Shown: positions 6,935 to 60,523, counted from the first letter of the stretch. The stretch is 64,000 bases of DNA from a virus (IMGVR_UViG_3300048839_001709:3604-67603), one strand, 5' to 3'. Notes: generated from the sequence alone by a model not told the origin. Numbers and translations: made by a program.

Positions 6935-6991
6935 CGGTTTGCACACCGGTTTTCCAAATCGGAAGATGTGGTTCAATTCCACACACCCGCT

Positions 6992-10411: not shown

Positions 10412-11265
10412 AGAGAACCATTGACGAATATTTCGCGCACATGCGGGCGCAGGGGCGCAGCGAACAGACCATCCGCATGTATCGGCACGATCTGGAAGAG
10501 TTGGCCGCGCACCTGGGCGATGTGGATCCAAAGCAAATCGCTTCGACCATGATCGACGGCTACGCGGGCGCAGTTCGCAGCGCCGGTCATTCTCCTGCCA
10601 CGGTGAATCACAAGCTGTCTGCCATGCGCAGCCTGTTCACCTGGATGCTGGATTCAGGCCAGATCGACATCAATCCGGCTCGGCTGATCCGAACCAAGCG
10701 GGTGGAATCAGCACCGCGCCGGTTCCTTTCTGCGGTGGAAAAAAACCGGCTGTTGCGCGAATTGAAAACCAGCGCCGACGCGCAGGCGTTGCGCGATCGC
10801 ACGATGATCCATTTGATGCTGGCAACCGGCATCCGTATTGCGGAGTTGGTTCACCTCGACATCGACGATGTGCTGGACGAAAAGCGCCTGCGGATCAAAT
10901 CGGCCAAAGGCGGAAAGCTGCAAACCAAGTTTCTCGGCAAGGAAATTGCTGGCACTCTGCGGCTATGGTTGAAAGAGCGCAACAAGATGGCCGATAGTTC
11001 TCCGGCTTTGTTTCCCGGGCGCGGAGCCAGCGAACGATTCACACCGGAACAGGTGCGGCGGCGTCTGGCCGAATGGTGCCGCAAGGCCGATGTGCCGGTG
11101 GTGTCGCCCCATGAATTGCGTCATACCTTCGCCACGCAGCTATTGGCCAAGACCGGCAACGTGCGCCTCGCTCAGGTGGCCCTCGGCCACAAGCGACTTG
11201 AAACCACGGCGATCTACACGCACGTCACCGACGAGGATCTGCAGGCGGCGGTGGAGGGGATGTAG
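10408..11265 (+). CDS. XerC/D-like tyrosine recombinase (no arm-binding domain)
   Basis: SAM-like N-terminal domain; TGIRIAEL, K, HELRHTFA, LGH...TAIY catalytic residues. Confidence 0.92.
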   Translation: MKRTIDEYFAHMRAQGRSEQTIRMYRHDLEELAAHLGDVDPKQIASTMIDGYAGAVRSAGHSPATVNHKLSAMRSLFTWMLDSGQIDINPARLIRTKRVESAPRRFLSAVEKNRLLRELKTSADAQALRDRTMIHLMLATGIRIAELVHLDIDDVLDEKRLRIKSAKGGKLQTKFLGKEIAGTLRLWLKERNKMADSSPALFPGRGASERFTPEQVRRRLAEWCRKADVPVVSPHELRHTFATQLLAKTGNVRLAQVALGHKRLETTAIYTHVTDEDLQAAVEGM

Positions 11266-15860: not shown

Positions 15861-16970
15861 GTGAAATACTTCGCAAGCATAGCAGAACAGCAGAGGCAAA
15901 GCGCCGTGGCGGCGCATGTTTCCGCCCATGCGCTCGCTCCGGTGGATGCCGCCTGGTCGTGGAATTGGCTGGAAACCGCCGATGAAATTATTGCGCAGTT
16001 GGGCTGGGCCGGCCTGGCCGATGCCTGCGCCTTCGTCGATCTGGATTACCCGACCGACAAAACCGAAGGCTTCCCGACGAACAAAGCGGCGTACAAATTG
16101 CCGTTCAAAACTTTGGTCGACGGCAAGTTGGTTGCCGTGTTCGAAGCGGTGAAGGCCGCGACCCAGGCGATCCGCGACGGCAAGGCCGATTTGAACGCCG
16201 ACCAGTCCGAACAGGCGCATGCGCTGTTAGCGGCTTACTGGTTGGCTTTCGGCAAACAGCCCCCGGCCTCGCCGAAACAGATTCAAGCCGGAATGAAATC
16301 GCAGGCTTCGCCGCAGCGTCCGCGAAAAGATGAAGGCGATCTGCCCGAAACCATCGTTATCCAGCAGGCGCCGCAAGAACCGCGCGGTTTGCCGCGAACC
16401 ATTTGGATACGCGATTTCGGTTTTTGGGCGGCCCGCGATTTCGTCGAGGATCTTAATCGCATGGAACGCGAAGACCCGAATCAGCCGGTGCTCGTGCTGA
16501 TCGACAGCTACGGCGGCTACGTCCACGACCTGCTGGTGATGGTGGCGGCGATGAAAACCAGCAAGTTGGAAATCCGCACCTGCGCGGTCGGCGTGGCGAT
16601 GTCCTGCGGCGCGATTCTGCTTTCGTGCGGAACCAAGGGCAAGCGCTATGCCATGCCGTACAGCACGGTGATGATCCACGAGGTCAGTTCGATAGCTTTT
16701 GGCAGCATGGCCGATTTGGAAAACGAAGTCGAGGAAACAAAGCGCCTCAACGAAATCCTGTTCACCATCCTGGCCGAAAATTGCGGGTTATCTCTGGCCG
16801 AATTGATGGAAACGCTTCGCGGCGATAACGGCAGGCGCGAGCATTACTTCTCGCCGGAAGACGCCGTGGCCTTCGGCATCGTGGATGAAGTCGTGACGGA
16901 CTTTTCCGCGATTCTGCCGATGGTGGCCGCATCCGCCGAAACGACACCCACCGCGGGAGGCCAGCAATGA
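15861..16970 (+). CDS. ClpP-like (S14) head protease with extra N-terminal domain
   Basis: IDSYGGYV, GVAMSCGAIL (Ser), MIHEV (His), SPEDAVAFGIVDEV. Confidence 0.85.
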   Translation: MKYFASIAEQQRQSAVAAHVSAHALAPVDAAWSWNWLETADEIIAQLGWAGLADACAFVDLDYPTDKTEGFPTNKAAYKLPFKTLVDGKLVAVFEAVKAATQAIRDGKADLNADQSEQAHALLAAYWLAFGKQPPASPKQIQAGMKSQASPQRPRKDEGDLPETIVIQQAPQEPRGLPRTIWIRDFGFWAARDFVEDLNRMEREDPNQPVLVLIDSYGGYVHDLLVMVAAMKTSKLEIRTCAVGVAMSCGAILLSCGTKGKRYAMPYSTVMIHEVSSIAFGSMADLENEVEETKRLNEILFTILAENCGLSLAELMETLRGDNGRREHYFSPEDAVAFGIVDEVVTDFSAILPMVAASAETTPTAGGQQ

Positions 16971-18169
16971 ACGAAGCCGTAAGAAAACTTAGCGAATTGA
17001 AAGCGCAGGCGGCGGAAACCGAGGGTCTGCCGTTGAAACTGGTCGATGAAAAAGCCCGTACCGTGCGCGGCATCCTGACGCACATCGGCGTCAACCGGAA
17101 TTATCTCGAATTGACGCTGGACGAAGCTCGCAAGGCGGTGCAGCGCTTCAAAAACGGCAAAATCCGCATGCCGCAAAACGAGATCAAATCGTCCGACGAT
17201 CTGCATCCGAATGCGTTGACCACGATCATCGGCGGCATGGAATCGATCGAGTTGAACGAACGCACGGGCGGCAAGCCGCGCGTGGAATTCATCGGGCGCA
17301 TCGACGACGAAACCGAGTGGGACCGCAAGGCGTACAAGCTGATCAAGGCCGGTCATGCCGTGCACACCAGCTACGAAGTGGATTATGCCGAAGGCGAATG
17401 CAGCAAATGCGGCAAGCGTTTTCGCAACGGCAAGGAAATCTGCTCGCACCTTTCGCTGGCCCGCAACGGCATGCCCCTCGGCAACAAGACCGCCCACATC
17501 ATCATGCACGAAGTGAAGTTTACCGGCGTATCGGTTTTCGAACCGAAAGGGGCCGATCCGGAGGCGGTCATCTTGGCCGTCGCCAATTTGATTCCAACTT
17601 CCCATGAGGAGGAAACCATGAGCTTGAAAACGGAAGAGAAGAAGCCGGTCGAGGCCCCGATCCAGGCCGAAGCGGCGAAGAAAACCGAGGTGGAGGATCT
17701 GACCGCGAAAGTGGCGGACCTCGAAGCGCAGATCAAAGATTTGACTGCGCAAAACAAAGCCTTGGCCGAGGAAAACGAAAAATTCCAGGCCGAGAAAAAA
17801 ATGGCGCGGGTGGAAAAGATCGTCGCCATGCAGGAAGCGCGTGGCGTGGCCTTCGCCGACGACAAGGCCCGCAAAGCCAAGGTCGATGCGCTGATGAAAC
17901 GGTCGGACGAATACCTGACCGACCTGGAAGAGGACCTCGCCGCCATTCCGGTGAAGGAAGCCGACCTTCCCGGCGAACCCGACGACGACGGCAAAACCGC
18001 CGAACAGCCGAAGGGCGAAGCCGCCGCGCACAAACCCGCGATCAAGGCCGTCGCCACGAAGCTGGATGACGTTGGCGATAAAAACACAAACGGAACGACC
18101 GGTTCGGATCTCGTAAGAAAGCTGGTCAGCCTGCAGGGAAACACCCGCGAAGAAGCGGAAAAAGAATAA
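16967..18169 (+). CDS. Prohead protease/scaffold fusion
   Basis: THIGVNRN, TSYEV, CSKC...CSH Zn ribbon, GVSVFEPKGADPEA; charged coiled-coil C-terminus. Confidence 0.75.
   Translation: MNEAVRKLSELKAQAAETEGLPLKLVDEKARTVRGILTHIGVNRNYLELTLDEARKAVQRFKNGKIRMPQNEIKSSDDLHPNALTTIIGGMESIELNERTGGKPRVEFIGRIDDETEWDRKAYKLIKAGHAVHTSYEVDYAEGECSKCGKRFRNGKEICSHLSLARNGMPLGNKTAHIIMHEVKFTGVSVFEPKGADPEAVILAVANLIPTSHEEETMSLKTEEKKPVEAPIQAEAAKKTEVEDLTAKVADLEAQIKDLTAQNKALAEENEKFQAEKKMARVEKIVAMQEARGVAFADDKARKAKVDALMKRSDEYLTDLEEDLAAIPVKEADLPGEPDDDGKTAEQPKGEAAAHKPAIKAVATKLDDVGDKNTNGTTGSDLVRKLVSLQGNTREEAEKE
17618..18169 (+). CDS. Nested in-frame scaffold protein (internal start)
   Basis: GAGGAGGAAACC-ATG at 17618, same RBS context as gene 18182. 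Confidence 0.6.
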   Translation: MSLKTEEKKPVEAPIQAEAAKKTEVEDLTAKVADLEAQIKDLTAQNKALAEENEKFQAEKKMARVEKIVAMQEARGVAFADDKARKAKVDALMKRSDEYLTDLEEDLAAIPVKEADLPGEPDDDGKTAEQPKGEAAAHKPAIKAVATKLDDVGDKNTNGTTGSDLVRKLVSLQGNTREEAEKE

Positions 18170-18181
18170 CGGGAGGAAACC

Positions 18182-18544
18182 ATGAGCCGTCAACTTGAAG
18201 TGCTGTATCCGGAAAAAACATTCTATCACGGTTCCGGGACGGTCGGCGCAAACTCCACCAGTGAACAGTTCATGGTGGTAAGTGGCGACGACACCTACAT
18301 CCCGGCCAGCGACAAAGACGCCAAGGTGGTTGGCGTTCTGCTCGACGATCGTGCGAGCGGCAAACGTTGCACCATCATTTCCAAGGGCTACGTCCGCTTT
18401 ACCGAAATCGGCGGCAGCAGCCCCAGCGCCGGCGACGAGATTCAAGTCGATGCGTCGACCGGATTCCCCACAAAGCTTTCCACCGGAACCGCGCGTGGTC
18501 TGATCACGGACACCAGCGACGGCTTCGTTGTGGAACTTTACTAG
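18182..18544 (+). CDS. Capsid decoration/cement protein
   Basis: Small beta-rich protein between scaffold and capsid; VVGVL..D pattern. Confidence 0.7.
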   Translation: MSRQLEVLYPEKTFYHGSGTVGANSTSEQFMVVSGDDTYIPASDKDAKVVGVLLDDRASGKRCTIISKGYVRFTEIGGSSPSAGDEIQVDASTGFPTKLSTGTARGLITDTSDGFVVELY

Positions 18545-18557
18545 AAGGAGGCAGGCA

Positions 18558-19433
18558 ATGATTGCATTCAATACTGCGGAAATTCTGGAAACCCGGAAAG
18601 CGATCGCCTCCAAGGTGAAGGAACTGTCCGGCTATGGCACCGATGATTTTTTCAAGGCAGAACGCCTCAATGCTCTGGCGGCCGAGGTCATCATGCCGTG
18701 GGTCGAGCAATCGATTGCATCCGAATCGATTACCGACCTGCTGCTCGAACGTCAACCGAGCAGAAAAGGCGATGTCAAATGGCCGGTCGGTCCGAAGCAC
18801 AAGTCGTTTTACGTCGATGAAAACGGCGACATTCAGGCCAGTCGCTCGCTGAAAAACTACATTACCCCGGAAGGTTACCTGATCGCCACCAAGGTACTGA
18901 TCGACCGTCTCGATTTGGAGCGCGGCGACGTTTCCTCGATCGAGGATCAGGTAAATGCGGCGAAAAACGACATTACCGAAAAGCTGAACACGGCGGCTAC
19001 CAACCTATTGATCGCTGCCGCTTCGGACGACATGAGCGAGGAAACCGCAACCCTGACCGATACGGCGTTCGACACCGTTACCGACCTGATGAACGATGAA
19101 AATCTTCGTCCGGTTCTGATCACCCTTCGCGCCACCCACGGCACCACCATCAAGGGTTGGAGCAATCCGCAAGATGTCGCCGCCGAATTGATGCGCAAGG
19201 GCGTTCAGGGCATGAGCATCAATGGTGCGGTCGTGCAGTACGCTCAGCAGATGCCGACCAATCGCGTCCTGTTCACCGGAGACAAAAAAGCCGGTCGCAT
19301 CCTGGATGAATTTCCGTTGACCGTCGATCCGGTTCAGATCAATGGGATGCAGGTCATCATTCCGATTTTCATCGTGGTGAAAATGGCAGTTTGCAATCCC
19401 GACTGGATCGGCCTGATCAAGCTCACGTCCTAA
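18558..19433 (+). CDS. Major capsid protein (HK97 fold)
   Basis: Strong RBS, ~291 aa, position, C-terminal VCNPDWIGLIKL. Confidence 0.75.
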   Translation: MIAFNTAEILETRKAIASKVKELSGYGTDDFFKAERLNALAAEVIMPWVEQSIASESITDLLLERQPSRKGDVKWPVGPKHKSFYVDENGDIQASRSLKNYITPEGYLIATKVLIDRLDLERGDVSSIEDQVNAAKNDITEKLNTAATNLLIAAASDDMSEETATLTDTAFDTVTDLMNDENLRPVLITLRATHGTTIKGWSNPQDVAAELMRKGVQGMSINGAVVQYAQQMPTNRVLFTGDKKAGRILDEFPLTVDPVQINGMQVIIPIFIVVKMAVCNPDWIGLIKLTS

Positions 19434-21488: not shown

Positions 21489-22036
21489 GCATCATTCGCG
21501 CCGTGGGAGCAGTGATTACCGATCGCATCGGCGTGGATACGTTCGTCGACGAATCGGCCCACCGCTACGGCGTGAAACCCATTGTCGAGATCTCGCAGAC
21601 GGATGGAAAAACGCAAAACACCGGCATCGGTCGACGCAGCTATACCCGCTGGGTAAACGGCGTACCGACGCATTTTATAAAGCGGTTGAACGAGACGGAA
21701 ACCATTCAGCTTACCGCCATTGCCGAGGCCAATGAAAACGGTTCGTCGGCAAAAAACTGCGTGGCGCTGATGAACCAAATCCGCGAGGACTTTTTGCAAA
21801 TCAGCTACGGCAATACGCCGGTAGCTTTCGTCGATCCCGATACCGAACTGGATATGAACGTAATGCGCACGAAAATCAAAGTGGATACCGTGCGCGGCCC
21901 GATTTTGAACACCACGCGGGGAAAAATGACACACGAAGCAACGCTGATGATTTCGGTCCCATACCGGATTCGGATCGCAACCCCGGTAACACGGGTGATC
22001 GAACACGTCGACATCATCCACGAGGTAGCAAACTGA
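21485..22036 (+). CDS. Tail terminator-like protein
   Basis: Position between gp10 and sheath. Confidence 0.55.
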   Translation: MSIIRAVGAVITDRIGVDTFVDESAHRYGVKPIVEISQTDGKTQNTGIGRRSYTRWVNGVPTHFIKRLNETETIQLTAIAEANENGSSAKNCVALMNQIREDFLQISYGNTPVAFVDPDTELDMNVMRTKIKVDTVRGPILNTTRGKMTHEATLMISVPYRIRIATPVTRVIEHVDIIHEVAN

Positions 22037-22290
22037 TGGCACGAAGAAAAGCAATAAAAGCGGAAAAGGCCGTTGCTCCGATCATGGAAATGCAACCGAA
22101 ATTCGCCGAAGAAAAACCGGTTGCGGCCAAGAAAATCGTCAAACGGCCTTTTGCCAATTTCGTAAAAAAACACGGCGTCGGCGGCACGGAAGCGGCGGCG
22201 TTGAAAGCAATATTGCCCGTCGATCCGGACGGCTTGATTACCGAAAAAGAATTCACCGAAGGCCGCGCCAAATGGCGGCGGGAGGGATAA
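22036..22290 (+). CDS. Hypothetical protein
   Basis: Translational coupling; small pre-sheath gene. Confidence 0.6.
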   Translation: MARRKAIKAEKAVAPIMEMQPKFAEEKPVAAKKIVKRPFANFVKKHGVGGTEAAALKAILPVDPDGLITEKEFTEGRAKWRREG

Positions 22291-22293
22291 GCC

Positions 22294-23766
22294 ATGGGTG
22301 AGAATAAATTTACGACCAGGTATCAGGACAATTATCAGTCGGCCGCCAGCGCAGGCGGCGAAAACGTTTTGACCATCGTCGGCCTGGCCAGCGACGGCCC
22401 GATTGGCGAGATTCAAAGTTTTTCCGGCATGGCCGGCGTGGCATCCTGCGAAGCGGTGTTCGGTGAAGGCGGCACATTGCCGCGAGCCGTGCGGCGGGCG
22501 ATCGAGGCTGTAACCAACGCCACCGAAGGCAATCCGATCCAGGTCAATGCAATGCGCGTCGGGAGCGGTTACGCAATGGCTTCGATATCGTTGCTCAACG
22601 ATTCCACCGCCGAAGTCTGCATGACCATCGCTTACGATTATGCCGGAATCGATGGCAACGAATGGCAATGCAAGGTCGAAAAAGACGACGAAGCCGAGGA
22701 ATACGTTGTCACCCTGCGGCGCGGCACCGATGGAACTGCGGTTCAGTTCACCGGTTCCACGGCCGGCGAAGGCGCCACTCCGGTGGAAGAATTGGTCGAG
22801 GCGATCAATGCGGGGGGTTTGGGCCTGACTGCAACTTTGGTTAGCGAAGACAAGCTGCTGGAGATCGACTACACCTCGTTCACCGGTGGCTTGGACGGCA
22901 CGTTGACCAATGCCCAGGCTATTCTGGCCATGCAAATTCTGGAAAGCAAAAAGTACATGAATTTTTACGTCGTCGGCTGGAAGGGAACGGGCGACGATGG
23001 CGCGGCGGTTCGGGCTGCATTGAACACCCACTGCAACAGCCAGCTTTCCGAACGCGACTGCGAACGGTTCGCCTTCGTCGAGGCGGAAGATTTCTCCAGC
23101 GTCTATCCGTTCCCGCACCCGTCCTGGTACACCGACATGGCTACCTGGGCAAGCGGCATTGCGACCTCGTTGACCGGCGTGGACATGAAAAACCTGATCA
23201 TGTTCGCGGGCGGGAAAACCTACACCGATGGCGCCGGAACCGAGTACGAAGCGAACGTTGCGGCGGAAGCTGCGGCTTTGTGGCTGGCGCTGCCGATCAA
23301 TCGTTCGATGATCAACGTGCAGGTGCCCAACACGGTCGAGGACGATCTTGCGCCGAACATTCCCGCCGCGTATCGCGCTATTCTGGCCGATGCGCGTTGC
23401 AACTACATGCGTTTCGAGGATGAAAATCGCGGCGTGATCATCGCCAATGACCGGACCTTGGCCGCGACGACCAGCGACTACAAATACGTGGACATCCTGC
23501 GCACGCAATACACCTGCGGCCAGGAAGCCCGCATTGCCGGGAAACCGGCCTGGGGCAAACCCGACGATGGAAAGGGGAGCGGACTGGATACCATGAAAGA
23601 CCTGATGGAATCCACGCTGGACCGCACTCGCGTAGGAAAAACCATCGTGGCCGTGAAGGTAACACCCGAATTCGTGGACGACGATAACGTCGAAGCGACG
23701 ATGGCCGTCACTCACTATCGGACCATGCGGTCGGTGGACCATGTGGTTCATGTGGAAAGGAGCTAA
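22294..23766 (+). CDS. Contractile tail sheath protein
   Basis: IVGLASDGP, YAGIDGN, FTGGLDG, NDRTL...YVDILR. Confidence 0.88.
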   Translation: MGENKFTTRYQDNYQSAASAGGENVLTIVGLASDGPIGEIQSFSGMAGVASCEAVFGEGGTLPRAVRRAIEAVTNATEGNPIQVNAMRVGSGYAMASISLLNDSTAEVCMTIAYDYAGIDGNEWQCKVEKDDEAEEYVVTLRRGTDGTAVQFTGSTAGEGATPVEELVEAINAGGLGLTATLVSEDKLLEIDYTSFTGGLDGTLTNAQAILAMQILESKKYMNFYVVGWKGTGDDGAAVRAALNTHCNSQLSERDCERFAFVEAEDFSSVYPFPHPSWYTDMATWASGIATSLTGVDMKNLIMFAGGKTYTDGAGTEYEANVAAEAAALWLALPINRSMINVQVPNTVEDDLAPNIPAAYRAILADARCNYMRFEDENRGVIIANDRTLAATTSDYKYVDILRTQYTCGQEARIAGKPAWGKPDDGKGSGLDTMKDLMESTLDRTRVGKTIVAVKVTPEFVDDDNVEATMAVTHYRTMRSVDHVVHVERS

Positions 23767-23769
23767 CCA

Positions 23770-24255
23770 ATGTCTGAAGTATACGATTATGATTTCGATG
23801 ATGGCATTGCCGGCGACGATGTCGACCTTTCCATCGTGACTCCGGACGGCCAGGAAATACCGATTTACACTGTGACGGACTTTTCCTGGAAGCTGTCGCA
23901 GAAAAAAGACCGCAAACCGCCGATGGGGAGCAAGGGCAAAACCCGCCGCGTTCGGTACAAGAAGACCTACGAAGGTTCGCTGAAAATCGAAGAAGCGAAC
24001 CATGCGTTCCTGGAAAAGGTGGAAGACCTGACTCCCGGCCGCACACCGAACAACGACGAATTCAATATCGGCGAGCAAACGGTGAAGGATTTGTGCGACC
24101 TGCGCAACCTGGTCATTCGCATGAAAATGCCGGATGGCCGCATTCGCCGGTTCTACAACGTGGAATTCGACGAGGTTAGCGGTTCGGCGGCGATGGATTC
24201 TCCGGTGGGGATGGACCTCAACTGGACGGCCACGGAAGCCAAGGGTCTGTACTAA
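23770..24255 (+). CDS. Tail tube protein
   Basis: Follows sheath; ~160 aa; YEGSLKI. Confidence 0.8.
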   Translation: MSEVYDYDFDDGIAGDDVDLSIVTPDGQEIPIYTVTDFSWKLSQKKDRKPPMGSKGKTRRVRYKKTYEGSLKIEEANHAFLEKVEDLTPGRTPNNDEFNIGEQTVKDLCDLRNLVIRMKMPDGRIRRFYNVEFDEVSGSAAMDSPVGMDLNWTATEAKGLY

Positions 24256-24282
24256 TAATTTTGCAACAAGGAGAAGTGATCG

Positions 24283-24750
24283 ATGAGCCCCGATGAAAAA
24301 GTGATCGAATTGACCGAAGAGGAAAAAGGTTTCGACGAAACGCGAAACGATATCGAAGAACACGTATCGGCCTACGTTGCCGATGAAGAAGAAGCGAAGC
24401 GAATCGTCGAAGAGGCAATGGCCGCAATCGCGGAAGGGAAGCAGAAGTTCCCGAAACGCACGATCTTCCTGGTGAAAATTCCCGACAACCAGTTCCCATT
24501 TGTGTGTCGGACCGGCTCGTTTAGCGAAAGCATCCGGTTTGCCAGTGCGTTGGAAAAAATGAAATCCGGCGCGGCCATGGAAATGAACGCGGCGACGTTC
24601 GTGGCGAAGCATGTGCTTTCGCCGAAATTGACCGTCGACAACGTGATTAATGGTTCGGATCAGATCAAGGATGGCGACGGAATCCGGCTGTTTTCCGCGA
24701 TCATGAAGAAGTCGGGCGGCGGTGACGAAACCGAAATAAAAAACGTATAG
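24283..24750 (+). CDS. Tail assembly chaperone (G)
   Basis: Between tube and tape measure; ends at slippery A AAA AAC. Confidence 0.75.
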   Translation: MSPDEKVIELTEEEKGFDETRNDIEEHVSAYVADEEEAKRIVEEAMAAIAEGKQKFPKRTIFLVKIPDNQFPFVCRTGSFSESIRFASALEKMKSGAAMEMNAATFVAKHVLSPKLTVDNVINGSDQIKDGDGIRLFSAIMKKSGGGDETEIKNV

Positions 24751-24950
24751 CCGCCGCGAAACGGCAGTTGGGATGGTACCAACTCGTTCGCGGCAGATTG
24801 GCTCATTACTGGCCCGGTCTGCGATTGCCGGAAATAGACCGGATGGGAATCGAAGAGATTTGCGAGCACATAGCGACGATCGAGAAACTGGAAGAATTGA
24901 AAGCCGAAGCGGGAAAGCAAAACAAAACGCCCCCTCGGCGGAAAAGATGA
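24738..24950 (+). CDS. -1 frameshift extension of the tail chaperone (GT)
   Basis: Heptamer AAAAAAC 24738-24744 opens into the -1 frame ORF ending at 24950. Confidence 0.7.
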   Translation, partial: KKRIAAAKRQLGWYQLVRGRLAHYWPGLRLPEIDRMGIEEICEHIATIEKLEELKAEAGKQNKTPPRRKR

Positions 24951-24960
24951 GAAGCAAACC

Positions 24961-47589: not shown

Positions 47590-47629
47590 AAAAGAAAAGC
47601 CCCAAAAATCTCAATGATTTACGGGGCTT
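47590..47629 (-). terminator. Hairpin AAGCCCC...GGGGCTT with U-tract, terminator for the reconstituted tRNA
   Basis: Inverted repeat just downstream of the tRNA 3' fragment on the minus strand. Confidence 0.55.
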
Positions 47630-47634
47630 CCGGT

Positions 47635-47679
47635 TGACGCGCCAGGCAGGAGTCGAACCTGCGACACACGGATTCGTAG
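47635..47679 (-). pseudogene. 3' half of tRNA-Arg(ACG) = att core
   Basis: Minus strand CTACGAATCCG-TGTGTC-GCAGGTTCGACTCCTGC-CTGGCGCG; anticodon loop, T-arm and acceptor 3' strand only, no 5' half. Confidence 0.85.
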
Positions 47680-47721
47680 ACCGGCCTGAAAAGCGGTAAA
47701 GCACTGGTAATAAAAGGCATT

Positions 47722-48798
47722 TTATTTTTCATTCAATACCGAGTTGACAATATGTTGACAATCGGGCAGCGAATTGACGATCCGAATCAGGTCTTGATCG
47801 TTCACCCGCGCATACCTTTCCTGTACCGTGGAAGCGAAGGCCAAATCGCGTCCGTGGCCAAGTAAAATCTTGCGGTAGATTTCATCCACGCCGGCGCGTA
47901 GCAATTCGGTTTGGAACGAAGCCCGCAAATCGTGCATCCTGAATTTGATTCCCGATTCCTTTTGCGCCAGGCGAATGGCCGAGTTGATTCTGGTGATCGT
48001 CTTTTTGCGATAGACGATGATTGGCCCCTTCGTTTTACGTTCGCCGAATGCCGGCCACAGTCCTTCGCGGATCGGCACACGCCCGACCTTCTTTTTACTC
48101 GCGGCCTGTTCCTTGTTCGGGTAAATAATTCCATCCTCGGTGATCTGCGACCAATCCAGGGCCAACACCGCGGCATGGCGCAAACCGGTAAATCGCGCAA
48201 TCAGAAAAGCACGGCGAACATGCTCCTCGCGTCCTTGGCAAATGGCCAGCAAATCGTCGTCGGTGATTTCCCGCTGAATCACGTTTCGCTCCGGGAGCCT
48301 TTTGATAAACGTGCAGGGGTTGTGCGGCGGGACAAGTTTTCCGGTTCGATTACCAAAATTATACACGGCGGAAAGCAAGGCAAGTTCGCGGTTCACCGTC
48401 GCCGGTTGAATTACCTTGCCGTGTTTGTTCTTTTCCTTGGCCCGCCGATGCTGATACCGCGCCACATGCTCCAACGTGATTGCCTGCGCCGGTATTGCGC
48501 CGAAAAAATCGAGAAGGTGTGCGGATCGGCTTTCGTCGTCCTTCCATGATTTTTTCGTTTTTTCGCTGTATTTCAGGTAGTCGGCAATCAGATCCTTGAA
48601 AAGAGAATCCTTGGAGCGGCGTCCCAGATACATTTCCTCGTACAGATCCTCGCGCATTTGGCGCTCGATCGCATCGGCCATGCCCTTGGGACAATAAACC
48701 ACGCGGCGCTTGCGGCGGGTCTGTTCGTCCTTGGTCACGCAGACATCCACCTGCCAGCCCTTGGTTCCGTCTTTTCCTTTGTATCGTCGAATCGGCAT
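47722..48798 (-). CDS. int: Phage integrase (tyrosine recombinase with arm-binding N-terminus)
   Basis: ATVNRELALL, TGLR, HDLR, LLGH, RY; adjacent att. Confidence 0.92.
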   Translation of the reverse strand: MPIRRYKGKDGTKGWQVDVCVTKDEQTRRKRRVVYCPKGMADAIERQMREDLYEEMYLGRRSKDSLFKDLIADYLKYSEKTKKSWKDDESRSAHLLDFFGAIPAQAITLEHVARYQHRRAKEKNKHGKVIQPATVNRELALLSAVYNFGNRTGKLVPPHNPCTFIKRLPERNVIQREITDDDLLAICQGREEHVRRAFLIARFTGLRHAAVLALDWSQITEDGIIYPNKEQAASKKKVGRVPIREGLWPAFGERKTKGPIIVYRKKTITRINSAIRLAQKESGIKFRMHDLRASFQTELLRAGVDEIYRKILLGHGRDLAFASTVQERYARVNDQDLIRIVNSLPDCQHIVNSVLNEK

Positions 48799-49342: not shown

Positions 49343-49972
49343 TTAGAGCCGGGTTCTCAGTTCCACGGCTCGACCCAACACCTGGTTCCGTTCGATTTCC
49401 AGCGGCGGAAAGTCTCGGTTGTCGAACATCAATATGTAACCACTTCCTAATTTTTTTATCCGCCCCAGCCGATTTTGCATGCGGCCGGCGCTTTTATTTG
49501 TAGCTGTAGTCAGAACGAGAACGATATCCCCATCATCCCACGCGACCGCAGGGTCGATTACGACGATGCCGTTATCCTGAATTGTTGGTTTCATCGCGTC
49601 GTAACCGGCCATTTTGAGCGCATATGCTCGCGGGCTTGCATGCCCAGCGTCAATTCGTTCCAAAATCATTTCATCATTCTCCCCGTCACGGTATTGCTCA
49701 GCGGTGCGCCAATCGATTACGGGGATTGTGCGAGAACGATCTATCGGGTAGTCGGCATCCGTGCCGAACAACAGCCAGGAAGGGGAAACTCCGGTTGCGG
49801 AGCAGATTTTCTCAATAGAATCACCATCTAATCTGGCAATTCCACGACGAAACCATGATGTGATTGTTGCATGGCTAATTCCAGTAAAATCGGAAAATTT
49901 ACTAATCCGACCATGTTTTTTGCCAAAACGATCAGATATCAATATGTCAATTCTTGTTAATATGTCTGACAT
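49343..49972 (-). CDS. CI-like repressor (HTH plus S24 domain)
   Basis: N-terminal HTH, VSPSWLLFG; C-terminal S24-like (AMKP in place of SMxP, so autocleavage uncertain). Confidence 0.85.
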   Translation of the reverse strand: MSDILTRIDILISDRFGKKHGRISKFSDFTGISHATITSWFRRGIARLDGDSIEKICSATGVSPSWLLFGTDADYPIDRSRTIPVIDWRTAEQYRDGENDEMILERIDAGHASPRAYALKMAGYDAMKPTIQDNGIVVIDPAVAWDDGDIVLVLTTATNKSAGRMQNRLGRIKKLGSGYILMFDNRDFPPLEIERNQVLGRAVELRTRL

Positions 49973-51167: not shown

Positions 51168-51431
51168 ATGACCGAAATCGACAAAAGCGAACTTACCACA
51201 CAAACCGCACAGGCGGCAACCGCCGTCGATTCCGACGACGATATCGATTTCGTGACCACCGGCGAGGCTGCGGACATTCTGCGGTGCAGCGATCAATCGA
51301 TTCGGCGGTACGTGGAGATGGGTTTGCTGCGCGATTACCGGCACAACCCGAACCGGGGACACCACAAATTGAATCGTGCCGAAGTCGAAAACGCCAGACG
51401 CAACGGCTTGCCGAAGCTTGGCGCTCGGTAA
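51168..51431 (+). CDS. HTH_17/excisionase-like protein
   Basis: VTTGEAADILRCSDQSIRRYVEMGLL. Confidence 0.8.
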   Translation: MTEIDKSELTTQTAQAATAVDSDDDIDFVTTGEAADILRCSDQSIRRYVEMGLLRDYRHNPNRGHHKLNRAEVENARRNGLPKLGAR

Positions 51432-51447
51432 CTGGAGGATGTCGGCA

Positions 51448-51765
51448 ATGAAGAAAGCCGAGAAAAAACGGAAACAGTATCCAGGATGGCTGCCGCGATC
51501 CTTCGACATGGAAACGGCGCACGAATATTCGGGTTTGCCGCTCGGAACCATCGAACGGCTGATCAAAAGCAACGTGCTGCCGCATCGCCGCACCATGCCC
51601 TTCGCCGCGGATCATTTCACCAGCAACAAAGTAGGGCGGAAAAAGGGCGTGATCATCATCGAGCGGCGCGATCTGGATGCGTATCTCGACAGCTTGCCGC
51701 GAATGGCCGGTAACTTTTCAGTCGATGCCGGGGCGCAGGCAAAAAAAACGGGGACAGGGCAATGA
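51448..51765 (+). CDS. Excisionase-like HTH protein
   Basis: ETAHEYSGLPLGTIERLI...IERRDLDAYLDSL. Confidence 0.7.
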   Translation: MKKAEKKRKQYPGWLPRSFDMETAHEYSGLPLGTIERLIKSNVLPHRRTMPFAADHFTSNKVGRKKGVIIIERRDLDAYLDSLPRMAGNFSVDAGAQAKKTGTGQ

Positions 51766-52019
51766 AAATCATCGTTTTCACTCTGATCGTTTTCATCGTT
51801 TGCGCGTTTCTGATCGTCAAATTCGATCCATTCACGCGAATTTGCGAGGGGCCGCAAAACGACTACGACATTCGCTGCACGGACGATTTTGTGGAATTGG
51901 AAGGCATTTACCACGATGCCCGCCTGCTGCAGGTCAACGGCGTCTGGCAGGTGACCACAAACAACGGCCATATCTACTACCTGCCTTTGGCCCACTGCGC
52001 CGTGGGGTACTACGAATGA
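51762..52019 (+). CDS. Hypothetical protein with N-terminal TM/signal
   Basis: Overlapping operon packing. Confidence 0.6.
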   Translation: MKIIVFTLIVFIVCAFLIVKFDPFTRICEGPQNDYDIRCTDDFVELEGIYHDARLLQVNGVWQVTTNNGHIYYLPLAHCAVGYYE

Positions 52020-52183
52020 AAAAGCACAAAACCAAGCGGGTGATCCGCATGTTCAGCGGGAAAGCAAAGGATTTCGACAAATTCAAGGCCGATCTGCTTT
52101 CCCGGTACGGCGATCAAACCACAATCGCTGAAATGAGCGAACTGCTGACCCAGGCAAAGGAAAAAACGTGTGCGATTCGATGA
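52016..52183 (+). CDS. Small hypothetical protein
   Basis: ATGA overlap. Confidence 0.55.
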   Translation: MKKHKTKRVIRMFSGKAKDFDKFKADLLSRYGDQTTIAEMSELLTQAKEKTCAIR

Positions 52184-52526
52184 ACCAGAACATGCCAAAA
52201 ACATCGCCGCGCAACTGGCCGGCATGGTCGATCAATCGCGGCTGCTGTGGGAATTGCAGGTCGAGGCACTCCGCGACTGGTGCGAAAGCACCTGGTGCGA
52301 AAACACATTCGATTGCTTTTTCGTCGATTGGCTGGTCGAGGAACTTGCCGACGAAAAACGCCGTGATCTGGAAACGCTGGTCGAGGATTGGCTGTGGAAA
52401 AAACGAATTGATTGCCCGATGTGCGGCGGCGAAAAAACCGTTACCTGCATCGACGAATCAAGGATATCGAGCAATTACGAGCAGCCGGCAGATTACGACG
52501 CTCCGTGTCCGCTTTGCTGCGGCTGA
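52170..52526 (+). CDS. Zn-ribbon hypothetical protein
   Basis: CPMCGG...CPLC. Confidence 0.65.
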   Translation: MRFDEPEHAKNIAAQLAGMVDQSRLLWELQVEALRDWCESTWCENTFDCFFVDWLVEELADEKRRDLETLVEDWLWKKRIDCPMCGGEKTVTCIDESRISSNYEQPADYDAPCPLCCG

Positions 52527-52546
52527 GTAACCAAGAAGTTCGATTC

Positions 52547-53250
52547 GTTCTTTCAAAACTGAATTTGTGGAGACGCCTTCGGTGGGACAAAGGCAGCCCG
52601 AAGAGAAGGGGTAGGCGCTCGGTCGAGCGTATCGACCAAAGCAGACATGACCCTCCATCTTTACTCCGATCCTAAGAGTGGTTGCATGAAAATTGGTAAC
52701 GCAATTTGAACATAGATTCCTTCCTGCCAGCCCTCGCCGGACAACTGCCGGTCTTCGGTTCGAATCCGAACGTCTCCATAACCCACACGAAAGGCGGCGG
52801 TCGGGCGGATCGACGGCGCGAAGCTAGGGATAACCTGCTTTTGTCAGGTTCAGATTGAAACGCTTCGCCGGATTTTTTCACTGAGCCAATCCGCAGACCG
52901 CCGCTGAAGAAACAGATACCGGAGCCGCATGGTGGACCTTCCACCTGCTGAAATTAAGGGGCGGCGATGCGCCCATACCCCATGGTTGCCGCCCCTCTTT
53001 TTGAGAACAGATACCGGAGGCGATGGTCGGAAATGACAGTGCTATCAAGAAATGAATCATGGTCGAATAGGTTAGCTGCCAAAGCTGTCGTTTCTCCCGG
53101 GTCACGCCGGGGCCTCCGATTATTTTTTCCAACGGTGGCGGCTGGTTCCGCTTCGAGCCGTCGAGATTCAGCAAACCCGATGATCGCAAAGCATAACGAT
53201 GGTTTCCCCCGCACATCGAAACGCCTGGGCTTTGCGGAACCGGCCCAGGC
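52547..53250 (+). ncRNA. Candidate structured ncRNA array with boxA-like leader and tRNA-like domain
   Basis: GTTCTTTCAAAACTGAAT; GGAGACG/CGTCTCC stem with T-arm TTCGG-TTCGAAT-CCGAA; three more long-range closed domains; no convincing ORF. Confidence 0.6.
52957..53002 (+). terminator. Intrinsic terminator-like hairpin
   Basis: AGGGGCGGCGA...TTGCCGCCCCT-CTTTTT. Confidence 0.6.
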
Positions 53251-53297
53251 TCCCCTGCAAACGCAATTATCAATCCAAACGAACGGAGGCAAATTAG

Positions 53298-54593
53298 ATG
53301 AGTAGTAAATTTCCGCAACCGACAATGCCGCGCAACGACGACACGGCAGAAGCCCTGGTGCGCGAGGGCAAAACCTTGCAGCGAATCGAGACGCCGTACA
53401 ATACCGCAGTCTCCGTGCAGAAACCGCGCAATTTCAATCAATTTATCGAGAAAGTAAAAACGGAAGCATCCTACGCCGGTGAATCGTTTTACTACCGCTG
53501 GCCGGTGAAAAAAGACGGCAAGGTAAGCGGATATGTCGAAGGCGGAAGCATCGGCATGGCGGCATGTCTGGCCCGAAATTTCGGCAACTGCGTGGTGAAT
53601 ACGACGATCACCGAAGAAAATAGCCGCGAATGGGAATTTGCCGCCGATTTCATCGATCTGGAAACCGGCTTCACCATGCGCCGCCTTTTCCGGCAGCGCA
53701 AATCGCAAAACATCGGCAAAAAATACGACGACGCCCGCGCCGAAGACATGGTTTTCCAGATCGGGCAAAGCAAGGCGCAACGCAATGTGATCTTGAAAGC
53801 CATGCCGGAATGGCTGGTCGACGAGTGCATGGAAGAAGCTAAAAGTCAGGAACTTAAAAAAATTCAATCGATGGGTCTGGTACCCGCCCGCGACAAAACA
53901 CTTCAAATCCTTCAACAAAAATATGGAGTCGAACAAGCGAGAGTTCTGGCAATTTTCGGTTATGAAAACGTCGAGCAGATCGGCGCGGATCAACTGGTCG
54001 AATTGAAGGGCATGATCCAAGCCCTGAAAGAAAAGCACAATACGGCAGAAGAACTTTTCCCGCTGATCGAAAAAAAACCGGAACCCACCGTCGAAGAAAA
54101 AAAAGCGCAGAAGGCCGAGGAAGAAAAAGCAGCCGACGTGCTTCCCGACGACGAACCGAAGCAGGAAAAGAAAGAGGCTCCGCAGCCGCAGGCGAAAGCC
54201 AAGGAAAAGACCGGCGAAGAAAGCCCGCCTCAAAAGCGCTACAACGACCTGTGCGAAAAATACGGACGCAAGGCGGTCAATTCCATTTTGAACAGTTTCC
54301 CCGTTCCGTTCGAGAAAATGTCGGATGGCGAGAAGAGTTCCGCTCTGGACGAAGCAGAGGACACCCTCGGCGGCGAAAAAGAAGAAGAACCGAAACAGGA
54401 AGAAGGTATCCCCGAAACTCACGAACGAATCACCGAAATGGCCAATCGCTTCGGCAGCCGCGACAAGGTGATTGCCGTTTTGCACAATTTGCATCCGGCA
54501 TTCGACAACTACTCCGACGAAGCCAAGCACAATGCTTTGGACATGACCGAAAAAGCCCTGGTCAAAAAATACCCCCCGAAAACGAAGGCTTAA
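53298..54593 (+). CDS. Putative ssDNA-annealing recombinase
   Basis: YYRWP...VEGGSIGMA...FIDLETG...SKAQRNVIL; paired with exonuclease. Confidence 0.6.
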   Translation: MSSKFPQPTMPRNDDTAEALVREGKTLQRIETPYNTAVSVQKPRNFNQFIEKVKTEASYAGESFYYRWPVKKDGKVSGYVEGGSIGMAACLARNFGNCVVNTTITEENSREWEFAADFIDLETGFTMRRLFRQRKSQNIGKKYDDARAEDMVFQIGQSKAQRNVILKAMPEWLVDECMEEAKSQELKKIQSMGLVPARDKTLQILQQKYGVEQARVLAIFGYENVEQIGADQLVELKGMIQALKEKHNTAEELFPLIEKKPEPTVEEKKAQKAEEEKAADVLPDDEPKQEKKEAPQPQAKAKEKTGEESPPQKRYNDLCEKYGRKAVNSILNSFPVPFEKMSDGEKSSALDEAEDTLGGEKEEEPKQEEGIPETHERITEMANRFGSRDKVIAVLHNLHPAFDNYSDEAKHNALDMTEKALVKKYPPKTKA

Positions 54594-54599
54594 TCGAAG

Positions 54600-55823
54600 A
54601 TGGCACGATACGACCGCAAAGCCGTTCTCAGCGTGTCCTCGGTGGATGAATTCGCGGAATGCGCACATCGTTGGTATCTGCGCTATTTGCAAAATGTGCA
54701 GCCGCAGTTTTCTTCGACCGAGGCTCGCCGTGGAACGGATATACACAATTTGCTCGCCGAGTATGCCCGCAAAACGGTTGCTCGGCGGGCAAACCCTTCC
54801 GAACTGTTTGACGACGACTGGCGCCGCATGGTCGATGATCTGCTGGCGATGATCGCCGAAAGCGAACAACCCGAATACGCCGTGCTGGTCGATGCGATCG
54901 AGAAACGCTACGGCAATCCGCCCGAGTTGCTTCCTGCCGATGCGACAAAGGCACTGGTGGAGCATTCCTTCGTTTTTCGCGCCAATGGCAGCCCGGTTCG
55001 CCGGCGCGATACCAGAACGCAGATCTGCTTCGGTTGCACCGTCGACCTGCTGTACTTTATCAATGGCGGAACCACGGCGGTTCTGCGCGACTACAAAACC
55101 GGCCGCAATTGGGAATACGGCCAACTGCTGGAAAAAGACCGGCAGATGTCGATGTACGCCCACGCGGTCACGCAGTTTTTCCCCGATGTGGCCGAGATCG
55201 TTATTGAAAAAGACAACTTGCGATTCGACTACGGCCTGATTCGATCGGTGTTTGCGCGAGAAGAATTCGAGGACAAATGGCGCGATGTGGTCGCCTGGAC
55301 CATGCCGATTTTTGCCCGAATCAGCGAGCTGGAAAAGGGCGGCGATCCACGCGAGGTATTTCCCACCAGCCCCGACGATTCGTTCTGTTCCTGGTGCCCG
55401 GTGCGGGCGCATTGCCCCGATTTCAACCGCTTGCCGATGATTCCCGAGTCGGTAACCGATTTGACCGACCGCAGCGCCATGACCGCGCTAGCCCTGCAAC
55501 TGCGTAGGGTGAAGCAATCCATCGGCAAGGTGGAATCGGCAGTGCGGAAATACATCGAAGAGGAAGGCCCGATCGAGACCGAGGGCGAAGTGCTGGACAT
55601 CATACCTTCCACTCGCCGCGATCTGGATAAGACCAAGGCCGTGAAGATTCTCCAGCAGCACGGAGTTCCCAAGAGCGCCATTTTCGCGGCAATGACAATG
55701 CCGCTGACCGCGATGGACAAGCTGACCAAGGGCAAGGAACCGGAAAAGAAGGCTCTGCGCCAGGCGATCAAGGAAGCCATTTCCTACAAAACATCCGCCA
55801 CGATGGAGTGGAAAAGCAAATGA
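54600..55823 (+). CDS. PD-(D/E)XK (Cas4/RecB-like) exonuclease
   Basis: SVSS...C, GTDIH, VDL...DYKTG, Q..MY, CSWCPVRAHC. Confidence 0.88.
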   Translation: MARYDRKAVLSVSSVDEFAECAHRWYLRYLQNVQPQFSSTEARRGTDIHNLLAEYARKTVARRANPSELFDDDWRRMVDDLLAMIAESEQPEYAVLVDAIEKRYGNPPELLPADATKALVEHSFVFRANGSPVRRRDTRTQICFGCTVDLLYFINGGTTAVLRDYKTGRNWEYGQLLEKDRQMSMYAHAVTQFFPDVAEIVIEKDNLRFDYGLIRSVFAREEFEDKWRDVVAWTMPIFARISELEKGGDPREVFPTSPDDSFCSWCPVRAHCPDFNRLPMIPESVTDLTDRSAMTALALQLRRVKQSIGKVESAVRKYIEEEGPIETEGEVLDIIPSTRRDLDKTKAVKILQQHGVPKSAIFAAMTMPLTAMDKLTKGKEPEKKALRQAIKEAISYKTSATMEWKSK

Positions 55824-59251: not shown

Positions 59252-60523
59252 ATGGACTTCATCCCGGTCGATCCGAAGTTGCCGAGGCACCCAAAAATCA
59301 GGGCACTTTCCCGTCTATTGTCCACAAGATCGCTGGATGTGTGGCCAAGAGTGATTTTTTTGTGGATGGAAGCGTTCGAGTTTTATCCCGATGGCGACGT
59401 AACAAATTTGGAAAATGACGAGGAAGAATTAGCGCGCATTTTCCAACTTCGCGGAAACAAGGGTGTCGAGTTTTTCAAGGCCATGATCGATGTCGGCTTG
59501 ATTGACCGGGATGAAGATAGACTGCTGCTACATGATTGGAATCAGGACGGTTGTGGGCGGATGATCAAACACAAGGAAAAGGCAAATCAGCGGTGGAGAA
59601 AATGGAAAGAGAAGAAAAATCAGGTTGAAAATGATGATGAAACAAACGTTGGCGCAAACGTTTGTTCAAACGTTGGTACAAACGTTGATGCAAACGTTAG
59701 CGCAAACGTTAGCGCAAACGTTGGACAAACCGTTTGCCAAACGGATGACATGACAAGACATGACAGTGTTAATATTAATATTAACTCTTTAAGCGCTTAC
59801 GCTATACGTAAGCCGGAAAATGACCCTGGTTCGATTTTTGAATTTGAAAAGCAAAACGAAAAAAACAAAAACGAAAAACAGGAACCGGCAACGCTCGACG
59901 AAATCCTGTCGGCCGGCGAAAAGAAATTCACCGCCAAGCAAAAAGCCGAAGCGATTTACGATTCGTGGAAAAAGAAAAACAACGCCCACGATCGTGACCG
60001 GGCGATCAAAAACATCGTCACGCTGCTGACCAAGGAAAAAGTTCCGTTCCACAAGCTGCTGGCCGCGTTCGACAACTACACGCGACAGGAAGACAAAAAA
60101 GGAAGCGAAGCGCAGTTCCGTAAAACGTGCGCCAATTTCTTTGGCCGCGATCGAACCTGGACGACCTATGCCGACGAAATTCCGCAGAATCCAAAAACCA
60201 CAGCGCCGGGGAGCAACGGCAACGTTGATTTTCCCGAAAGCGACGATCCGATTTTCAACGCGATCATCCAAAATTTGAGCAAGTTCAAAACCTGGGTTGC
60301 GACCGGTGGAATTACAAAAAGCCGCGAAACCATCGTGGATCAATTTGGCGAAGACGTTTTCAACGTTGCGCTGGCCATGTCCCGCGAAGGTTGGTTCAAG
60401 CGGTGGAACGACCTCGGCGGCGATTCGCAGATGGTCGAACGGATTATCTGCAAGCAGCTTCCAGGCGCCTACCAACAGGCGAAAAGCAAAATCGAAAAAG
60501 CGACGGAGAAAGCCAATGGCTGA
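59252..60523 (+). CDS. Replication initiator (lambda O-like organisation)
   Basis: HPKIRAL...LLHDW N-terminus, internal iterons, FRKTCANFF C-domain. Confidence 0.8.
   Translation: MDFIPVDPKLPRHPKIRALSRLLSTRSLDVWPRVIFLWMEAFEFYPDGDVTNLENDEEELARIFQLRGNKGVEFFKAMIDVGLIDRDEDRLLLHDWNQDGCGRMIKHKEKANQRWRKWKEKKNQVENDDETNVGANVCSNVGTNVDANVSANVSANVGQTVCQTDDMTRHDSVNININSLSAYAIRKPENDPGSIFEFEKQNEKNKNEKQEPATLDEILSAGEKKFTAKQKAEAIYDSWKKKNNAHDRDRAIKNIVTLLTKEKVPFHKLLAAFDNYTRQEDKKGSEAQFRKTCANFFGRDRTWTTYADEIPQNPKTTAPGSNGNVDFPESDDPIFNAIIQNLSKFKTWVATGGITKSRETIVDQFGEDVFNVALAMSREGWFKRWNDLGGDSQMVERIICKQLPGAYQQAKSKIEKATEKANG
59643..59785. repeat. Replication origin iterons: 7x CAAACGTT at 12-bp period plus AT-rich palindrome
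   Basis: Copies at 59643, 59655, 59667, 59679, 59691, 59703, 59715; GTTAATATTAATATTAAC 59768-59785. Confidence 0.8.

Follow-up and report, generated by a model that had tools for sequence, protein, structure and literature searches.

What occupies the interval between the small early genes of a phage and its recombination genes, when several hundred nucleotides there carry no recognizable gene? The question is raised by a 771-nt untranslated spacer (52527–53297, + strand) in the viral genome IMGVR_UViG_3300048839_001709, which lies between a zinc (Zn)-ribbon open reading frame (ORF) and an annealase-like gene. The window analyzed here is the 64-kb stretch spanning bases 3604–67603 of that IMG/VR record, and positions are counted from its first letter. 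A preliminary description of the DNA had proposed an array of closed RNA domains forming either a multi-unit non-coding RNA (ncRNA) or an attenuator ahead of the recombination genes, and all 11 motif strings that it listed were found where it had placed them. Of the two proposals, the attenuator is plausible given two terminator-like structures (T1 and T2) in a non-coding gap before the recombination genes, whereas a large ornate ncRNA is unsupported. We tentatively read the spacer as a terminator/attenuator region of the early operon that may gate the annealase and exonuclease pair, much as tL1/tR1 do in phage lambda, with termination itself predicted from sequence. This reading is favored because of the phage context, the non-coding gap, T1, a second domain that is unusual on the + strand only and carries a U-run, and the Red-like gene pair downstream.

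The spacer is non-coding. Codon-usage log-odds were negative in all three + frames, compared with +0.38 and +0.51 for the flanking genes, and the ORFs that it contains on either strand scored between −0.17 and +0.16. The preliminary description would have been refuted if the 112-codon ORF 52967–53305 proved to be translated and conserved as protein, which the results do not indicate. This ORF had a codon score of −0.135 and no gene call of its own, matched no Pfam or PHROG family, and yielded no homologue (0 of 15 candidates at E ≤ 0.01 among 5.8 billion proteins). In contigs of a relative, described below, an 8-nt insertion breaks its frame, according to a hand reading of low-depth contigs.

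The firmest feature of the spacer is T1 (52957–53002, +), a predicted intrinsic (Rho-independent) terminator of canonical anatomy in which the stem-loop GGGGCGGC...GCCGCCCC is followed by UCUUUUU. The hairpin (52957–52996) reaches −23.3 kcal/mol over 40 nt and is followed in the DNA by CTTTTTG; its perfect G/C stem of 8–9 bp can be extended to 11 bp, and it is oriented as are both flanking genes. Among 76 hairpin-plus-U candidates on the + strand, T1 ties for fourth to fifth place in stability, and the other candidates in the top five are all longer. Folds of individual segments were scored against 200 dinucleotide shuffles, and the segment that contains the terminator (52905–53014) gave z = −2.49, with 5 of 200 shuffles as stable.

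T1 is flanked by the 14-mer AACAGATACCGGAG, which occurs exactly twice in the window, at 52911–52924 and 53006–53019 (both +), 95 nt apart; the terminator-like hairpin between two repeat copies thus stands as first described. Downstream of the first copy, an ATG at 52929 lies within a small hairpin (52927–52949). The second contributes CGGAGGC (53015–53021), the 5′ closing strand of the domain that follows. When aligned to the annealase translation start, the 14-mer looks like the ribosome-binding region of that gene, the true one being 53278–53290, and an ATG follows each copy.

The shared motif invites a different account, in which the interval encodes one or two small regulatory RNAs (sRNAs), each opening with AACAGAUACCGGAG as a seed or ribosome-binding-site mimic and ending at T1 or T2. 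The two units do have their first 14–17 nt in common, each is closed by a hairpin and U-run, and the motif both resembles the annealase ribosome-binding site and is complementary to GCCUCCG in the second unit. Tandem paralogous sRNAs are familiar from OmrA/B and PrrF1/2. Prophage sRNAs with 3′ terminators, and a dual system of sRNA and read-through transcript, have also been documented (PMC4825925; 10.64898/2026.05.13.724894). However, a promoter scan of 51500–54500 found a single site, compared with 1.4 expected, and that site lies within domain 2 rather than ahead of either unit. Past the 17-mer the units share little sequence, and no homologues were found, so that we regard sRNAs as unlikely here.

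The same ATGs raise the question of leader ORFs whose translation would be coupled to termination or to the annealase start. There are two candidates, a 35-codon ORF (52929–53036) that runs through T1 and a 32-codon ORF (53199–53297) whose TAG abuts the annealase ATG. GGAG followed by ATG is present at both copies of the 14-mer, and in a relative from a digester the insertions and deletions listed within 53199–53297 sum to multiples of three with start and stop kept (hand reading). Against this, the codon scores of the two ORFs are negative (−0.04 and −0.16), their ATGs follow the Shine-Dalgarno (SD) sequence at spacings of 4 and 2 nt, and each ATG falls in a predicted hairpin. Internal residues are not conserved in the relative, as read by hand from single low-depth contigs, and the 112-codon ORF has no homologue and, by the same hand reading, no intact frame in that relative. 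We consider translated leaders very unlikely.

About 100 nt beyond T1, the second structure of interest combines domain 2 with a U-run (together 53015–53130, +). The domain is a three-way junction that has CGGAGGC/GCCUCCG as its closing helix and AUUAUUUUUUCC after it; inside it are a 12-bp helix pairing 53029–53040 with 53084–53095, which includes three G·U pairs, and a CCCGG/CCGGG hairpin. At −40.1 kcal/mol, domain 2 (53015–53118) was more stable than all 200 shuffles on the + strand (z = −2.92), while on the − strand z was only −1.19 (25 of 200). It is therefore a moderately unusual and strand-specific fold. Its closing pairs form with an ensemble probability of 0.92–0.94. Because the 3′ closing strand GCCUCCG (53112–53118) directly precedes the U-run AUUAUUUUUU, the closed domain looks like a branched terminator, which we refer to as T2.

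The 3′ closing strand of domain 2 has a second possible partner. GCCUCCG at 53112–53118 (+) is an inverted repeat of CGGAGGC at 53015 and also of the CGGAGGC at 53284 that serves as the predicted SD of the annealase gene (SD plus ATG, 53284–53300, +). Pairing with the SD has a probability near zero when the ensemble of the full-length RNA is computed, and it forms only when the copy at 53015 is left out. The two states, closure of domain 2 and pairing with the SD, were computed at −96.8 and −93.5 kcal/mol, respectively, and are 3.3 kcal/mol apart.

Upstream of T1 lies domain 1 (52794–52904, +), a 111-nt closed fold with an all-Watson-Crick closing stem of 9 bp plus 6 bp and two hairpins inside. 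Its energy of −52.9 kcal/mol compares with −36.7 ± 3.8 kcal/mol for the shuffles, none of which was as stable (z = −4.28; 0 of 200). Because the closing stem consists of Watson-Crick pairs throughout, the − strand is equally stable (z = −4.82), and folding does not resolve the strand on which the domain acts. As a genome-wide control, we scored 5030 local closed structures of 85–125 nt from both strands, with z corrected for GC content and length. Domain 1 ranked 19th of these by raw energy (−55.0 kcal/mol in the local scan), and its corrected z of −3.0 was undercut in just 2 of the 30 most stable structures. Domain 1 clearly exceeds chance, and it may act as a modifier of the polymerase like the put RNAs of phage HK022, as an RNase III site or as a stabilizer.

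Domain 3 (53141–53250, +) has an 11-bp closing stem with one G·U pair. Its fold is ordinary and no better than chance (z = −0.90, 38 of 200 shuffles; z = −0.33 in the local scan). The 8-bp competing hairpin GCCTGGGC/GCCCAGGC (53223–53250) is present and overlaps the 3′ closing strand of domain 3, as had been reported, but the domain on which it depends lacks statistical support. The same 3′ strand includes one half of an 8-bp inverted repeat, UUGCGGAA/UUCCGCAA (53232–53239 and 53311–53318), and could pair with annealase codons 5–7; the window holds 58 inverted repeats of that length, and this one may be due to chance.

Taken as an array, the closed domains fared unevenly, with domain 1 and T1 well founded and the remainder close to chance. 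The comparison that the preliminary description had named as a possible refutation, folding against shuffled controls, separates domains 1 and 2, which beat their shuffles, from domain 3. Closing stems of 7 bp occur at background frequency. Perfect inverted repeats of at least 7 bp with 60–110-nt loops numbered 240 in the window and 217 ± 12 after shuffling, and in the gap itself there were four closing stems of at least 7 bp where 2.9 were expected. Longer stems were mildly enriched at 8 bp or more (three, with 0.7 expected), and one of at least 9 bp was present (0.25 expected). The domains share no sequence with one another or with the rest of the genome, and the gap contains no tandem repeats. 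A MITE (miniature inverted-repeat transposable element) or other repeat family was considered and rejected, as there are no further copies in the 67.6-kb genome.

These results bear on the proposal of a large and ornate RNA of several domains, comparable to GOLLD and ROOL. In its favor are the length of the spacer (771 nt), its non-coding status, its phage setting and its several predicted hairpins. However, no Rfam family reached its gathering threshold in the spacer, no large ncRNA family did so anywhere in the window, and a separate search of 52300–53500 returned nothing but noise at E ≤ 10 for the spacer domains, with no large ncRNA, isrK or DicF among the matches. Against 20 shuffled versions, the whole gap folded with a z of only −1.86 on the + strand (1 of 20) and −1.00 on the − strand (2 of 20). 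The spacer is interrupted midway by an intrinsic terminator, domain 3 is at chance level, and pattern and protein-anchored scans of IMG/VR, the JGI metagenomes and GTDB found no homologues. An RNA of the GOLLD/ROOL kind is hence an extremely improbable reading of this interval.

The genes that a terminator region would control here are a moderately supported Red-type annealase and exonuclease pair (53298–55823, +), for which the earlier label "recombination genes" is fair. The first encodes a 431-aa Rad52/Red-beta-like protein (53298–54593, +) that belongs to phrog_3657 and matched no Pfam or NCBIfam family. In its AlphaFold model (mean predicted local distance difference test, pLDDT, 78.7), residues ~26–256, and mostly 26–191, align to RAD52, Mgm101 and lambda Red-beta with VIA-align Z scores of 5.5–7.0; these three make up all of the top nine rows and row 12. 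Foldseek probabilities were 0.87–0.92, but the E-values were merely 0.06–0.3. The family has 419 homologues at E ≤ 0.001, and on the model of its N-terminal domain it appears to be a Rad52-like family that is seemingly unnamed. The start at 53298 is supported by the only close homologue, P0002 (85% identical), which has the same first 14 residues. The second gene encodes a PD-(D/E)XK exonuclease (54600–55823, +; PF12705 at 1.7e-21); genes for a DUF5131 protein, an amidase and a DnaB helicase come after it.

The IMG/VR record is complete (67.6 kb, with 127-nt terminal repeats), and the phage is temperate, as its genome encodes both an integrase and a CI-like repressor. Family searches identified the tyrosine integrase at 47722–48798 and the helix-turn-helix (HTH)/S24 CI-like repressor at 49343–49972, both on the − strand and facing a long + strand operon. 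From the integrase and the CI-like repressor the order leads through the small early genes of this rightward early operon to the spacer, and from there to the annealase, the exonuclease and the replication genes. The interval singled out in the preliminary description corresponds to the downstream two-thirds of the spacer. The small early genes include one for an HTH protein (51376–51765, +), and the last of the genes before the spacer is the Zn-ribbon ORF (52170–52526, +).

Starting from what was computed directly (the non-coding status, the anatomy and orientation of the terminator, the stability of domains 1 and 2, and the complementarities), we infer a course of events in which RNA polymerase from an early promoter would first transcribe the very stable domain 1 and next reach the strong intrinsic terminator T1. 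About 100 nt further on, it would encounter the branched, terminator-like T2. The annealase and exonuclease genes would be reached only by read-through, whether through leakage or an antitermination function, and their expression would be delayed relative to the immediate-early genes, as with lambda tL1/tR1. In addition, since the 3′ closing strand of domain 2 can pair with the annealase SD, the folding of domain 2 could set access to the ribosome-binding site, which would give the two CGGAGGC copies and their complement a role as an SD/anti-SD triplet.

Such a region has well-characterized counterparts. In lambdoid phages early genes have terminators ahead of them (PMC9378689), and the spacer resembles tL1/tR1 in that its terminator or terminators sit in a lambdoid-style early operon between immediate-early and recombination genes. 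It differs from both lambda and HK022 in that termination is here predicted from the nucleotide sequence and any antitermination is hypothetical. The put RNAs of HK022 are about 70 nt long and form two stem-loops (PMC9378689); likewise, the interior of domain 1 presents two adjacent stem-loops ~50 nt upstream of T1. The put RNA lies downstream of an early promoter and acts in cis on RNA polymerase. Domain 1 is 111 nt long, however, with a 15-bp closing stem, and the likeness is one of shape; no sequence relation was seen, although no sequence comparison was made. Among prophage sRNAs, IsrK of Gifsy-1 and those of the DicF/Pas type come closest. In IsrK, a terminator separates short and read-through forms, and the ribosome-binding site downstream takes part in alternative pairings of the long form (PMC4825925), a layout that the spacer resembles. 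In contrast to IsrK and DicF, the present locus has no promoter, homologue or Rfam match to isrK or DicF, and its predicted ensemble strongly favors one conformer.

Several observations weigh against a gate of this kind. No N- or Q-like antiterminator gene was recognized, which also sets the locus apart from the lambda N/nut system, and no significant lambda-type nut site (boxA plus boxB hairpin) was found. The boxA that the preliminary description had mentioned is not significant: the best boxA-like sequence, at 52547, has 3 mismatches, and the window contains 16 sites with at most 3 mismatches, compared with 40.8 expected. The U-run of T2 is placed behind a 7-bp long-range closing helix (P 0.93) of a length found at chance rate, and the local alternative hairpin is weak (−13.3 kcal/mol). 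The terminator criteria come from model bacteria and may not be those of the host. Domain 1, being as stable on the − strand, may be a palindrome that matters at the DNA level. Finally, searches of IMG/VR, the JGI metagenomes and GTDB returned only relatives of at most 53% identity, which lack the spacer and none of which could be aligned to it.

The distribution of relatives was examined in several ways. Protein-anchored scans of IMG/VR returned no loci for the annealase or the exonuclease and two for the Zn-ribbon ORF (25–46% identity), while a profile scan of IMG/VR gave 23 loci (36–47% identity) and a scan of the JGI metagenomes gave 11 (40–53%). When the gap was compared with 52 loci by blastn and nhmmer, none was similar, the sole match being one of 23 nt to a locus retrieved with the gap as query. 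There was likewise no match by blastn to 50,697 phage records, and an exact-pattern scan of IMG/VR for the T2 core had none. For a survey of upstream gaps we used 34 loci from the relatives of 36–53% identity, 32 of which had an upstream ORF of at least 60 aa. The gap was at most 208 nt in 31 of those 32 loci and 734 nt in the remaining one, and the short gaps indicate that the spacer is specific to this lineage, which fits an added regulatory insert.

Contigs from four public sequencing runs cover fragments of the region, with 52569–52895 lying outside them, and as assembled sequences they show neither transcription nor its strand or ends. A soil DNA contig matches 52896–53042 with five differences. 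Digester metatranscriptome contigs of a relative (85–94% identical over the pieces) match 52359–52566, 53068–53183 and 53223–53428, and the one over domain 2/T2 (53068–53183) is 87% identical. The pieces are of low depth and their differences are listed only in part, and the single conclusion we draw from the contigs is that a relative in another habitat keeps recognizable sequence over domain 2/T2 and the leader.

Just upstream of domain 1, the spacer contains an element at 52569–52778 (+) that is shaped like a transfer RNA (tRNA) or transfer-messenger RNA (tmRNA), as judged by its acceptor pairing, its T-arm and a weak Rfam tmRNA match. Its ends form a perfect 7-bp acceptor (GGAGACG/CGTCTCC) beside a canonical T-arm (TTCGG-TTCGAAT-CCGAA) and a discriminator A, with an insert of ~180 nt between them, an arrangement that recalls tmRNA. 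A tag-less (CDS-less, that is, lacking a coding sequence) tmRNA-like gene is on record in mycobacteriophage DS6A (PMC11915505). The differences from tmRNA are considerable, however. The match to the Rfam tmRNA family (RF00023) scored 14.5 bits against a gathering threshold of 47, aligned the tRNA-like ends alone and skipped 308 internal positions; its E-value of 0.0018 applies to the 1.2 kb searched and becomes roughly 0.1 when scaled to the whole window. Pseudoknots and a plausible tag frame were not evident, none of the frames showing, by eye, the typical hydrophobic end, and CCA is not encoded. The tmRNA acceptor stem carries G3·U70 as its alanine identity, whereas pair 3:70 of the element is A-U.

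As a tRNA gene the element is no better defined, with no complete cloverleaf recognized by RF00005 or ARAGORN. At default settings ARAGORN found no tRNA gene there, and it called the element only under relaxed or intron-allowing settings with an "intron" of 120 or 326 nt, the 5′ partner varying between runs; under relaxed intron-allowing settings it also made one to four calls in each of 10 shuffled windows. The 22-mer at the 3′ end of the element had no match in 185,579 GTDB species genomes or in IMG/VR. Two RNA contigs of the digester relative, from two runs, end no more than two nucleotides from 52568, the expected point of RNase P cleavage; since both runs belong to a single study, we take this as a weak hint only.

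A related fragment is found beside the integrase, where a tRNA-Arg(ACG)-like 3′ fragment (47642–47707, −; Rfam tRNA 19.4 bits) is the probable core of the phage attachment site, attP. It is followed by a terminator-like hairpin at 47596–47630 (−). The attP 27-mer occurs in 10 GTDB genomes, among them five Polyangiaceae (GC content 0.67–0.69) and one Gemmatimonadales (0.72); three attP-matching metagenome-assembled genomes, with a GC content of 0.50–0.54, are identical at 39 of 42 nt. Neither the gap DNA nor the tRNA-like 29-mer was found in three candidate-host genomes. The tRNA-like piece of the spacer, 52742–52778, covers the same part of a tRNA as the attP fragment, with the 3′ anticodon-stem strand at one end and the discriminator at the other. 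It differs from an attP or attL remnant in its location amid the early operon, 4 kb away from the integrase, in having a perfect 7-nt partner 195 nt upstream and in matching no tRNA in GTDB. Weighing these points, we lean, without much assurance, toward the element being a relic of a tRNA 3′ half, and a functional tRNA- or tmRNA-shaped RNA seems to us possible, if somewhat less probable.

The relic would fit a broader account in which the whole spacer is a scar of evolution, a mosaic joint where phages recombined with one another or where recombination took place at an old attachment site. It would hold the dead 3′ half of a tRNA, a terminator that had been captured and a short duplicate of the ribosome-binding region of the gene, with T1 the only functional part. 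Of the 32 distant relatives that have an upstream ORF, 31 are without the spacer, the piece at 52742–52778 is anatomically equivalent to the tRNA-Arg 3′ fragment of attP, and intron-allowing ARAGORN joins both 3′ halves to a distant 5′ half (two of two calls). Neither domain 3 nor the closing stems of 7 bp exceed chance, and tRNA-like sequences near prophage sRNAs have been read as remnants of insertion sites (10.64898/2026.05.13.724894). On the other hand, junk would be unlikely to fold as stably as domain 1, which none of 200 shuffles matched, or to be stable on one strand in particular, as domain 2 is. The relative of 85–94% identity, from another habitat, retains recognizable sequence at 53068–53183 and 53223–53297, and the tRNA-like 3′ end is unmatched by any tRNA in the 185,579 species genomes. 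An inert joint is for these reasons an improbable explanation of the spacer as a whole.

At the opposite extreme, the spacer might be a control module made of RNA only, with a tRNA-like decoy or processing signal, a put-like or RNase III-type domain 1 and a dual-role domain 2. In such a module, RNase P would release 52569–52778 from the early transcript at 52569, and the released RNA would act as a decoy for the host tRNA or trans-translation machinery or would signal processing. Domain 1 would decide whether the polymerase passes T1 and T2, and domain 2 would act both as a terminator and as an anti-anti-SD element of the annealase gene. This is hinted at by the 7-bp acceptor beside a T-arm, the contig stops at ~52568 and the 3′ end that has no match in GTDB; we regard it as decidedly doubtful.

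Other features of the window are more conventional. At 59643–59784 (+), within ORF 59252–60523, the 12-nt unit CAAACGTTGGCG recurs 8.5 times ahead of an AT-rich tract, an arrangement that resembles an origin of the lambda type whose iterons lie in the gene of a replication initiator. The 14-mers flanking T1 were also considered as an origin or iterons, an idea that was rejected since there are only two copies and the iteron-like array is located here. A tRNA-Gly(UCC) gene at 6920–6991 (+) scored 57 bits in Rfam, and ARAGORN found it only with -ps and not at default settings. A second tyrosine recombinase (10165–11265, +), with Phage_integrase and SAM-like N-terminal domains, is encoded immediately ahead of the genes for the head and for packaging. 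Long antisense ORFs on the − strand at 52878–55412 (844 codons), 21805–24957 (1050 codons) and 16844–18613 (589 codons) are located opposite real + strand genes; rather than genes, they are shadow frames that accompany a strong purine skew in the coding strand.

On present evidence the spacer appears to be an ordinary transcription barrier of the lambdoid style. If the gate reading is correct, an uncultivated phage of soil or digesters would time its recombination genes by terminators as the lambdoid phages do, and this design would extend to phages without sequence relation to lambda. It would also place an unclassified Rad52-like annealase family, phrog_3657, behind a terminator gate. The tRNA/tmRNA-shaped neighbor could matter more, in that a phage RNA mimicking tRNA or tmRNA without the alanine identity would, if real, represent a novel type of decoy or of processing signal.

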